64,000 bases of DNA from Escherichia coli (GTDB taxonomy: Bacteria; Pseudomonadota; Gammaproteobacteria; Enterobacterales; Enterobacteriaceae): assembly GCF_046105845.1 (NCBI RefSeq), contig NZ_CP151004.1, one strand, 5' to 3'. This document shows positions 2,490 to 51,197 of the stretch, one piece after another. The position numbers were made by a program, and so were the translations under genes. Under the pieces are notes generated by a model that saw nothing but the letters and a program-made list of their open reading frames with translations, was not told the DNA's origin and did not search any database. Numbering within the stretch: the first letter of the stretch is position 1; each line of letters begins with the position of its first letter.

Positions 2490-4028
2490 TTAGTGCGCAC
2501 CACCTCCGCCGCCACCTGCGCCAAATGGCGGTTTAGCAAACCACACCAGCCCCAGCAGGACGAGGAATATCCCAGCTGACATCCAGAAGATCTCATTGGC
2601 GGAAATAATCAGCCCCTGATTGGTGATCTGCTGGGCAATCCAGCCTGATGCCTGCTGTTGCGTCATCCCAAGCCCTTCCAGTTGACTATACATCGCCTGG
2701 GCATTCGGGTTGAACGGGTTTACCGACTCAGTCAACTGCGCATGGTGCATCGACTCGCGGTTGGTCCACATGGTAGTGGTTATCGACGTGCCGATAGACC
2801 CCGCCAGCGTTCGCGTAAAGTTAGAGAGGCTCGATGCTGCCGCCAGTCGTTCCGGTGGCAAACCAGACAGCGTAATGGTGGTCAGCGGCATAAAGAAGCA
2901 GGCCACCGCAAAACCCTGGATAAACTGCGGCCAGGCCGACGCGCCAAAATCCATACCTGGTTCAAAGGTATAGGCACGCCAGTAGAAGCAGACGGCATAC
3001 ATAATAAAGCTGAAGGTTACCAGCCGCCGCATATCCAGTTTATGCGCGAAGCGGCCGATAATCGGCGACAGGATCACCGGAATAATTCCTACCGGCGCAG
3101 AGGCCAGACCTGCCCACGTTGCCGTGTAACCGTAGACCTCCTGCAACAACTGCGGCAGCAGAACAATCGCGCCGAAGTAGAGCATATACGCGAGGCTGAT
3201 ACACAAGCAGCCGATGGTGAAGTTGCGCGACTTAAACAACGACAGATCGACTATCGGGTTATCGTCGGTCAGCTCCCAGACAATCAGGAAGCAGATAGCC
3301 ACCACTGCCACCACGGTAAGGATGATAATTTCCTGTGATGAGAACCAGTCCAGCTCTTTACCGCGGTCGAGCATAATCTGCAGGCTACCGATACCAATAA
3401 CCAGCAGTGCCAGCCCCACGGCATCAATCCGCCGCCGTTCGGTGCGGGTTTCACGTCCGCGCAGGGTTTGCAGTGTCATCAACACCACCGCCACGCCAAT
3501 CGGTACGTTGATGAAGAATATCCAGCCCCAGTGGTAATTGTCACTGATATACCCGCCGAGGATCGGGCCGCAAATTGGCGCGACAATCACCGTCATCGAC
3601 CACAACGCCAGCGCGATCGAGCGTTTGGCTGGCGGGTAGTTATTCAGCAATAGACTTTGCGAAAGCGGAATTAACGGCCCGGCGACAATCCCCTGAATCA
3701 CGCGGAAGAAGATCAGCATATTCAGGCTGCTGGAGACACCACACGCCCACGACGCAATAGCAAAGGCGATGGTTGACCAGAGGAACAGTTTCACTTCCCC
3801 GACGCGCTTTGCCAGCCAGCCGGTAAGCGGGATCGAGATGGCATTCGCCACCCCGAAAGAAGTGATTACCCACGTTCCCTGGCTGAGCGATGAGCCCAGA
3901 TTCCCGGCGATAGTGGGGATCGCCACGTTAGCAATGGTGGAGTCCAGCACCTGCATGAATGTCGCCAGTGACAGCGCAATCGTCATAATGACCAGTTGCG
4001 CGCCTTCCAGCGGTTTTTGCTGTTGCAT
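2490..4028 (-). CDS. emrB: Multidrug efflux MFS transporter EmrB
   Basis: ORF 2490-4037; protein MQQQKPLEGAQLVIMTIALSLATFMQVLDST… 14-TM MFS; start moved to ATG at 4028 (MQQQK). Confidence 0.95.
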   Translation of the reverse strand: MQQQKPLEGAQLVIMTIALSLATFMQVLDSTIANVAIPTIAGNLGSSLSQGTWVITSFGVANAISIPLTGWLAKRVGEVKLFLWSTIAFAIASWACGVSSSLNMLIFFRVIQGIVAGPLIPLSQSLLLNNYPPAKRSIALALWSMTVIVAPICGPILGGYISDNYHWGWIFFINVPIGVAVVLMTLQTLRGRETRTERRRIDAVGLALLVIGIGSLQIMLDRGKELDWFSSQEIIILTVVAVVAICFLIVWELTDDNPIVDLSLFKSRNFTIGCLCISLAYMLYFGAIVLLPQLLQEVYGYTATWAGLASAPVGIIPVILSPIIGRFAHKLDMRRLVTFSFIMYAVCFYWRAYTFEPGMDFGASAWPQFIQGFAVACFFMPLTTITLSGLPPERLAAASSLSNFTRTLAGSIGTSITTTMWTNRESMHHAQLTESVNPFNPNAQAMYSQLEGLGMTQQQASGWIAQQITNQGLIISANEIFWMSAGIFLVLLGLVWFAKPPFGAGGGGGGAH

Positions 4029-48899: not shown

Positions 48900-48933
48900 A
48901 CGGCCCAGCATGCGAATGCCGGGCCGTTTTCGT
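48900..48933 (+). terminator. Rho-independent terminator after grpE
   Basis: cggcccagcatgcgaatgccgggccg hairpin followed by TTTTCGTT. Confidence 0.7.
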
Positions 48934-50219
48934 TACTCCGCCACACTCTCGCGCAGCGGTTTCACAGGAAAAACTTTTACCTGTTTAATCATATTGTCCT
49001 GTACGTCGAGAATGTCGATGTCGTACTCGCCAATACGTACACGAGTGCCCGCGACCGGGATCTCTTCCAGTGCCTCAAGAATGACGCCATTAACCGTGCG
49101 GGCATCATCTTCCGGTAGATGCCAGTTAAAGGCTTTGTTGATTTCCCGCACGTTGGCAGTGCCATCAATAATCACCGAACCGTCGTTTTGCGGAGTGACT
49201 TCTTCGGCAAGTGTTGGCGACATCGAGGTAGTGAAATCGCCGACAATCTCTTCCAGAATATCTTCAACCGTCACCAGCCCCTGAATGTCTCCGTATTCGT
49301 TGACGACCAGGCCGACTTTCTTTTTGTTGCGCTGAAACTTTACCAGTTGCGTGCTGAGTGGCGTGCCTTCGGGCACAAAATAGATCTCGTCCGCGGCGCG
49401 TAGCATGGTTTCTTTGGTGAACTCTTTTTTCTCCGACATCAACCGCCAGGCTTCACGTACTCGCAGCATACTGATGGCGTCGTCCAACGAATCACGGTAG
49501 AGCACGATGCGCCCGTGAGGTGAGTGGGAGAGTTGGCGCAGAATCGATTTCCAGTCATCGTTGATATCAATACCGATAATTTCACTGCGCGGCACCATGA
49601 TGTCATCAACGGTCATCTTTTCCAGATCGAGCACAGACAGCAGCATATCCTGATTGCGACGGGAAATTTGTGAGCGTGATTCGTGCACGATAGTGCGCAA
49701 CTCTTCTTTGCTCAAAGAGCCGCTAACCACGATATCGGTTTTGATACCCATCATGCGCATCAGCATACGGGTGATAGCATTCAGCAACCAGACCAGCGGC
49801 ATCATCAAAATTTGCAGCGGAGCCAGCAGAAAACTACTCGGATAAGCGACTTTTTCCGGGTACAGCGCGGCAATGGTTTTCGGCAATACCTCAGCAAAAA
49901 CCAGTACGACAAAAGTCAGCACACCAGTCGCAATTGCCACGCCCGCATCGCCGTACAAACGCATCCCAACAATAGTGCCGAGCGCGGAGGCAAGAATATT
50001 GACCAGGTTATTGCCGATTAACACCAGGCTAATCAGGCGGTCTGGCTTACGCAGCAATTTTTCGACGCGTTTGGCCGAGCGATTACCCTGTTTCGCCATA
50101 TGTCGCAGACGATAGCGGTTGAGGGTCATCATTCCGGTTTCGGACCCGGAAAAATAGGCTGAAATGACCACCATGATGATCAGAATAATGATCAACGTAG
50201 TAGTAGAAATGTGTTCCAG
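48933..50219 (-). CDS. yfjD: CorC/HlyC-family (CNNM, CBS-pair) inner-membrane protein YfjD
   Basis: ORF-track frame 48933-50195 (420 aa); the frame stays open upstream (LEHISTTT…) with no ATG, so the 5' end 50219 is a possible non-canonical start and is uncertain. Confidence 0.85.
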   Translation of the reverse strand: MEHISTTTLIIILIIMVVISAYFSGSETGMMTLNRYRLRHMAKQGNRSAKRVEKLLRKPDRLISLVLIGNNLVNILASALGTIVGMRLYGDAGVAIATGVLTFVVLVFAEVLPKTIAALYPEKVAYPSSFLLAPLQILMMPLVWLLNAITRMLMRMMGIKTDIVVSGSLSKEELRTIVHESRSQISRRNQDMLLSVLDLEKMTVDDIMVPRSEIIGIDINDDWKSILRQLSHSPHGRIVLYRDSLDDAISMLRVREAWRLMSEKKEFTKETMLRAADEIYFVPEGTPLSTQLVKFQRNKKKVGLVVNEYGDIQGLVTVEDILEEIVGDFTTSMSPTLAEEVTPQNDGSVIIDGTANVREINKAFNWHLPEDDARTVNGVILEALEEIPVAGTRVRIGEYDIDILDVQDNMIKQVKVFPVKPLRESVAE

Positions 50220-50239
50220 GGGAAACTCCTTTTCTGGGT

Positions 50240-51031
50240 TTAGCTGATTAACTGCTGGACAATTCGGCTGCCGAAGTAGGCCAGTGTCAGGATGACTGCA
50301 CCCGCAACGTTAAACCAGACGACGCGGCGTCCACGCCATCCTTCATGATAATGTCCCCACAGCAGCACAATATAGACAAACCACGCCACGATAGAGAGCA
50401 CGGCCTTGTCGATATTTTCCATGCTAAATAAGTTGTGCATGTAGAACAGGCCAGTGCAAAGCGTGAGCGTTAGCAGCACCACGCCAATCTGCGTGATGTG
50501 GAACATTTTACGCTCGATACTCATCAATGGCGGCATTTCCTGGTTAAACGCCAGCTTCTTGTTCTTCAGTTGGTAATCAATCCACGCCAGTTGCAGCGCG
50601 TACAGGGCGGCGATAATCAGCGTGGCATAGGAAAAGAGCGATAAGCCAATGTGCACCAGCATCCCAGGCGTAGCTTCCAGATGGGTGATGTATTCATTGG
50701 GCATGAAGGTCGCCAGCGCAAGGTTGATAAGCGCAAAGGCATAGACAATGGGTAGCAGCAACCAGCCACGATTGCGAGAAGCCACAATGGTCATTACCGT
50801 ACAGATCATCAAACTGACCAATGAACCAACATTCAGCAGGCTGAGGTTTTGTCCGCTATCACCGTCGGGCAGGATGCGGGCTTCCAGAGCGATTGCGTGG
50901 CAGACCAGCGCGATGACCGCAGAAATAATAGCCATGCGCCGCCAGCCGCCGTTTTTTTGCAGCAGACCGGGAACAATCAGCGCAAGACTGACGGAGTAGG
51001 CGACAAGCGCGAGCAGAGCAAAAACGGGCAT
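50240..51031 (-). CDS. ypjD: Inner-membrane protein YpjD (CcsA-like)
   Basis: ORF 50240-51106; start trimmed to ATG 51031 (MPVFALLALVAYSVSL…). Confidence 0.9.
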   Translation of the reverse strand: MPVFALLALVAYSVSLALIVPGLLQKNGGWRRMAIISAVIALVCHAIALEARILPDGDSGQNLSLLNVGSLVSLMICTVMTIVASRNRGWLLLPIVYAFALINLALATFMPNEYITHLEATPGMLVHIGLSLFSYATLIIAALYALQLAWIDYQLKNKKLAFNQEMPPLMSIERKMFHITQIGVVLLTLTLCTGLFYMHNLFSMENIDKAVLSIVAWFVYIVLLWGHYHEGWRGRRVVWFNVAGAVILTLAYFGSRIVQQLIS

Positions 51032-51197
51032 AGTGATGTCGACAGTTTGAGCAATAAGAAAGAGAAGCAGTATAGCGTCAGGTGAACGCTGCTCCAACCG
51101 TTGCATAACAACAAAGACGCCTTCATGTTATACTGCGGCAAAATACTGATGATGTGTCGCGATTGCGGCCAACCGTTTCCACCCCAGGCGAGAGACA

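Follow-up and report, generated by a model that had tools for sequence, protein, structure and literature searches.

The CTG initiation codon of Escherichia coli yfjD and the absence of ATG at the aligned position in 91 gammaproteobacterial loci

The ypjD-yfjD junction

The window analyzed here is the whole 64,000-nucleotide stretch of E. coli contig NZ_CP151004.1. On its minus strand yfjD (corB) follows ypjD, in a locus whose other neighbours are ffh, grpE, and nadK. The features of the junction, all on the minus strand and in the direction of transcription, are as follows.

50240..51031, minus strand: ypjD, cytochrome c assembly family protein, upstream of yfjD (RefSeq CDS, 1820-2611 of the fetched locus)
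50226..50231, minus strand: Shine-Dalgarno sequence AAGGAG, core AGGAG at 50230-50226 (from the sequence; AAGGA core conserved)
50220..50225, minus strand: 6-nt spacer TTTCCC between Shine-Dalgarno sequence and CTG (from the sequence)
48933..50219, minus strand: yfjD (corB) CDS, 428 codons plus stop, a CNNM/CorB-type HlyC/CorC family transporter (RefSeq mapping, Pfam)
50217..50219, minus strand: CTG initiation codon (codon 1), decoded as fMet (sequence, EcoGene 3.0 mutagenesis, 79-species alignment)
50196..50216, minus strand: codons 2-8, E-H-I-S-T-T-T, a polar N-terminal tail before transmembrane helix 1 (79-species alignment)
50193..50195, minus strand: TTG, codon 9 (Leu), the formerly annotated start (list of open reading frames)
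50172..50174, minus strand: first in-frame ATG, codon 16 (Met16), within transmembrane helix 1 (from the sequence)

The minus strand reads ...CAGCTAA ACCCAGAAAAGGAGTTTCCC CTG GAA CAC ATT TCT ACT ACT ACG TTG ATC ATT ATT CTG ATC ATC ATG GTG GTC.... The TAA stop codon of ypjD (50242-50240) lies 20 nt before the CTG. At its other end ypjD is drawn in two ways: the list of open reading frames gives 288 amino acids from an upstream ATG (50240-51106, minus strand), and RefSeq gives 263 amino acids from the internal MPVFALLALV....

A preliminary description of this DNA had proposed that yfjD might start at a CTG or other non-AUG codon, and its observation is partly confirmed. The yfjD frame is open for 30 codons 5' of the CTG, to an in-frame TAA at 50312-50310, and these codons include no ATG, GTG, TTG, CTG, ATT, ATC, or ATA, so that the claim of an open upstream frame lacking ATG is borne out. 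The AGGAG-like Shine-Dalgarno sequence that had been noticed is also present, 6 nt from the CTG. What did not hold is the identity of the codon at 50195, described as the first Met codon. This codon is TTG, which the program listing open reading frames had picked as the start of a 420-aa frame (50195-50193), and no ATG occurs in the frame until codon 16 (50174-50172). The eight residues that a CTG start was said to add are correct relative to the TTG; relative to the first ATG the number is 15. The peptide L-E-H-I-S-T-T-T, with the CTG included, corresponds to 50219-50196, exactly the interval that had been flagged.

The arrangement AGGAG-N5-9-CTG occurs 3 times in the window, with 4.66 occurrences expected from shuffled sequences. 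Since the motif is not enriched over chance, the pattern by itself proves nothing, and the support for the start has to come from comparative and published experimental evidence. Folding of the RNA around the start gave no significant structure (z = -0.72), and in the centroid fold the Shine-Dalgarno sequence and the CTG are both unpaired. The minimum free energy fold contained a 5-bp hairpin, GUUUC/GGAAC, across the CUG; it was dropped because the Raoultella and Citrobacter amalonaticus sequences cannot form it, as judged by eye. The ATT at codon 4 was also considered as a start and rejected, as it lies 15 nt from the Shine-Dalgarno sequence and changes freely among the Ile codons ATC, ATT, and ATA.

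Domain organization and the N-terminus

The 428-residue YfjD matches the CNNM (DUF21) profile PF01595 over residues 11-184 (E = 8e-54; profile positions 1-174 of 181), the CBS profile PF00571 at residues 278-326, and, at its C-terminus, the CorC_HlyC profile PF03471 over residues 344-418 (E = 2.3e-19). Residues 201-330 match the solved CBS-domain protein 3hf7 (E = 2e-74). By its family membership YfjD is predicted to be a Mg2+ (or Co2+) exporter. In the solved archaeal CorB chains 7m1t/7m1u, chain residue 11 aligns to residue 10 of the query. Together with the start of the Pfam CNNM match at residue 11, this alignment shows that a polar tail of about 10 residues before transmembrane helix 1 is normal for the family.

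Codon patterns across the Enterobacteriaceae

The locus was fetched from 79 Enterobacteriaceae species, and the sequences were aligned by their protein matches, all 79 of which extend to residue 1. The codon aligned with the E. coli CTG is CTG in 36 species, TTG in 30, GTG in 13, and ATG in none; that is, the TG is invariant (79/79) while the first base is C, T, or G (36, 30, and 13 species, respectively). The Leu codons 9 and 13 behave in the opposite way and vary at the third position. Codon 9 has C as its first base in 71 species and T in 8, and its third base is G in 57, C in 11, A in 7, and T in 4; it is thus CTN in 71 of the 79 species, and TTA also occurs. An invariant TG behind a variable first base, unlike the pattern of the Leu sense codons, is the signature of a start codon at codon 1.

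The codons that follow point the same way. The mean entropy of codons 2-8 in the 79 species is 0.05 bits at the first codon position, 0.01 at the second, and 0.81 at the third, and the peptide EHISTTT is kept in 74 of the 79. With variation almost confined to third positions, amino-acid constraint starts directly after the NTG. Upstream of the start the periodicity is gone, and conservation across the 79 species is limited to the AAGGA core (-12 to -8).

A few species differ further upstream. The stretch directly 5' of the Shine-Dalgarno sequence bears no relation to the usual 3' end of ypjD in Raoultella, Enterobacter sp. 10-1, Intestinirhabdus, and one strain of Citrobacter amalonaticus, and no ypjD stop is found within the 45 nt upstream of the start. 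This suggests an insertion or a different ypjD-yfjD junction in these genomes.

Distant orthologs and the history of the start codon

DNA was also fetched for twelve distant gammaproteobacterial orthologs of 58-83% identity, among them sequences from Morganella, Serratia, Halomonas, Psychromonas, Halieaceae, and metagenomic contigs. At the aligned position ten of them start with TTG and two with GTG. The start is therefore a codon other than ATG in 91 of the 91 loci examined (79 from Enterobacteriaceae and 12 distant). Nine full-length homologs sourced from JGI are recorded with a first residue that is literally L or V. The gammaproteobacterial homologs open with M/L/V-[DEN]-x-[IV]-[SP]-T..., and their SxSE motif begins at residue 24, with 23 residues ahead of it. 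Nine of the distant loci included upstream sequence, and in 8 of these the ortholog is preceded by a PF01578 gene.

In one ortholog, on Logan contig SRR29554085_177, the region at position 401 reads GTG TTG GAT CAT..., and the called start is one codon 5' of the family's aligned start; either the GTG or the TTG could be the real start there.

Parsimony on a neighbour-joining gene tree requires at least nine changes of the start codon within the Enterobacteriaceae and places TTG at the root. The ancestral start was thus probably TTG. In the simplest history, the CTG of E. coli would probably be a T-to-C derivative of this ancestral TTG, and CTG would have arisen in several lineages, the sampled Escherichia and Salmonella sequences among them.

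Conservation within E. coli

Of 5426 complete E. coli genomes, 5425 contain the 301-nt junction sequence, with identities of 93-100%, annotated as ypjD followed by yfjD, "HlyC/CorC family transporter". The 30-nt string from the Shine-Dalgarno sequence to the CTG, CCCAGAAAAGGAGTTTCCCCTGGAACACAT, is present exactly in 5093 of the 5425 genomes, and the other 332 differ from it at one position. In 40 of 40 rows sampled across the ranking of the 30-nt query, yfjD was the listed feature. Three of the 332 variant genomes were inspected; all have the CTG, and their difference lies in the spacer, which is TTTCCCC (7 nt) in two of them and TTTACC in the third. The CTG is likewise retained in the two genomes that diverged most in the 301-nt search. 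One of these, E. coli ChlosBP-23-1 (NZ_CP048603.1), carries a 9-bp tandem duplication (AACCCCAGT AACCCCAG) at about 196-240 of the fetched locus, between the ypjD stop and the yfjD Shine-Dalgarno sequence; the gap is longer, and the Shine-Dalgarno sequence, spacer, and CTG are intact.

In RefSeq the 428-aa yfjD CDS begins at the CTG in 7 of 7 E. coli genomes inspected, namely K-12 AG100, E2865, and five picked as the most divergent or as carrying a difference in the 30-nt string. In K-12 AG100 and E2865 the CDS spans 2632-3918 of the fetched locus (1287 nt), where 2632 is the C of the CTG and corresponds to window position 50219.

Published record and annotation

The CTG start of E. coli yfjD has been published before, and databases annotate it as standard. 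EcoGene 3.0 (PMC3531124) covers yfjD in a section entitled "CTG start codon verification", where it is counted as the second gene of E. coli K-12 with a CTG start, hda being the first. Mutagenesis confirmed the CTG, a result cited within this database paper as unpublished (Dague and Rudd), while expression was unaffected by mutation of the codon 9 TTG (PMC3531124). In our full-text literature search on yfjD, EcoGene 3.0 alone bore on the start codon. The search brought up no record of the gene from ribosome profiling or N-terminal proteomics, the supplements of a Salmonella riboproteogenomics study make no mention of the gene, and a paper on the MazF regulon has yfjD only in a gene table, with the number (17) beside it and nothing on the identity of the start codon.

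The non-AUG start proposed in the preliminary description is accordingly supported by publication, by RefSeq, by the codon patterns across species, and by the TTG and GTG starts of the orthologs. The description had suggested that the start may be genuinely unusual; it is one already documented in both publication and RefSeq. As the correct E. coli start is on record, the finding adds nothing new for E. coli. The only possibly new point is the avoidance of ATG at this start across the family, with its possible tie to control of Mg2+-exporter expression.

Standard gene finders ignore CUG, and automatic annotation routinely shortens yfjD. In public collections of genomes and metagenomes, many predicted YfjD proteins open at Met16, with the SxSE motif at residue 9, and some open even at Met30 or Met31 (MMTLNRY... 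or MTLNRY...). Because gene callers do not consider CTG, these entries are truncated and lack most of transmembrane helix 1; they are a systematic annotation artefact of the lineages with a CTG start.

Alternative initiation sites

Taken together, these data make us confident that yfjD is translated from the CUG at 50219-50217 to give a 428-aa protein beginning fMet-Glu-His-Ile-Ser-Thr-Thr-Thr.... Our analysis itself shows where the start lies, that coding constraint sets in at codon 2, and that none of 91 orthologs has ATG at the start; the mutagenesis evidence for the CTG comes from others. Three other arrangements were weighed against it.

Alternative in-frame starts are known in E. coli, and the gene might use several of them, in which case the 428-aa protein from the CTG would be the main product and TTG9 or ATG16, initiating weakly, would add minor shorter forms. 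We consider this quite unlikely. Neither TTG9 nor ATG16 has a Shine-Dalgarno sequence in range, TTG9 is not conserved, and its mutation was without measurable effect (PMC3531124). What is more, the shorter forms would be without a complete first transmembrane helix.

Translation from the TTG at 50195-50193 (codon 9), as in the older annotation, would give 420 amino acids and would make the open frame upstream an untranslated leader. No canonical start codon precedes TTG9 in the open frame, and the first base of codon 9 is T in 8 of the 79 species. However, codon 9 with its CTN in 71 of 79 species and its free third base shows ordinary Leu behaviour, so TTG9 cannot be the start of the family. 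The sole Shine-Dalgarno sequence is 30 nt upstream, too far to serve it, and codons 2-8, which would then be noncoding, are under clear amino-acid constraint. Again, a start at TTG9 would leave a single residue before the region that aligns to the solved CorB structures, and the mutagenesis of this codon (PMC3531124) speaks against it as well. We regard this start as very improbable.

Least probable of all is a start at the first ATG (50174-50172, codon 16; 413 aa), which many automatic callers predict, which is invariant in the 79 Enterobacteriaceae species, and at which many database entries open (MVVISAYFSGSE): no Shine-Dalgarno-like sequence lies 5' of it, it would drop the first five CNNM profile positions and most of transmembrane helix 1, it would leave 8 residues before the SGSE motif where the family has a constant 23, distant orthologs have Leu, Cys, or Ile at this position and so no ATG, and codons 2-15 are under coding constraint.

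Initiation at the CUG and expression of YfjD

For initiation at the CUG, the 30S subunit would be placed by the strong AAGGAG, whose 6-nt distance is optimal and around which no significant RNA structure is predicted, and the initiator fMet-tRNA would pair with the CUG through a first-position C-U mismatch. In reporters CUG initiates at about 1-2% of the level of AUG (Hecht et al., preprint). The efficiencies relative to AUG quoted in PMC11497404 are 0.86% for CUG, 29.8% for UUG, and 58.4% for GUG, and the same source puts the very rare CUG at 0.024% of bacterial initiation codons. With CUG at about 1% of AUG in reporters, synthesis of YfjD is probably low, and the CUG would be what holds production of this predicted membrane Mg2+ exporter down. 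Since ATG is wholly absent despite repeated changes of the first base, we infer that low expression is a selected property of the start. The retention of a non-AUG start across Gammaproteobacteria likewise suggests selection for low or conditional translation of the exporter.

We also compared the Shine-Dalgarno sequences of species with different start codons. GGAG is found in 32 of the 36 CTG species and in 1 of the 43 TTG or GTG species (Fisher p about 1e-16); the sequence is mostly AAGGAG in the former and mostly AAGGAA/C/T in the latter. The mean predicted pairing with the anti-Shine-Dalgarno sequence is -8.1 kcal/mol for CTG, -6.1 for GTG, and -5.9 for TTG. This raw association is inflated by shared ancestry: among eight phylogenetically independent pairs of CTG and non-CTG species, the CTG member has the stronger Shine-Dalgarno sequence in six and the weaker in two, which is not significant (sign test, p = 0.14). 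Compensation of the CTG start by a stronger Shine-Dalgarno sequence is thus suggestive and not established.

A bolder reading, to which we give a low probability, is that the weak non-AUG start is itself conserved and selected and could tie CorB synthesis to the fidelity of initiation (IF3, free Mg2+). If this were true, high cytosolic Mg2+ would relax the discrimination against near-cognate starts and production of the exporter would rise, and the stronger Shine-Dalgarno sequence (AAGGAG rather than AAGGAA) would partly restore output in the CTG lineages.

Comparison with known systems

The yfjD described in EcoGene 3.0, GenBank U00096, and RefSeq WP_010723175.1 (428 aa) is the same gene with the same start codon as that in the window. 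The strain of the window is not K-12; over the 301-nt junction it is 98.7% identical to K-12 and 100% identical to strain E2865. The segment from the Shine-Dalgarno sequence through the spacer to the CTG is identical to that of K-12, and nothing else of substance differs. Among solved structures, archaeal CorB (7m1t/7m1u) and the CorC transmembrane domain (7cff/7cfg) share the domain order of a CNNM transmembrane domain and a CBS pair, to which YfjD adds CorC_HlyC. These CNNM/CorB structures bear on the position of the N-terminus only and not on the start codon.

A parallel in E. coli is hda, likewise a chromosomal gene with a CUG start, for which annotation at first placed the N-terminus wrongly, at a start further downstream. 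Its product is unrelated, being a factor in DnaA inactivation where YfjD is a membrane transporter. Noncanonical near-cognate starts that keep expression low are also found in infC and pcnB of E. coli. Both genes use AUU, which has a third-position mismatch, unlike the CUG of yfjD. The AUU of infC makes its translation sensitive to IF3; a regulatory loop is demonstrated for infC, and a regulatory role of the CUG of yfjD is putative.
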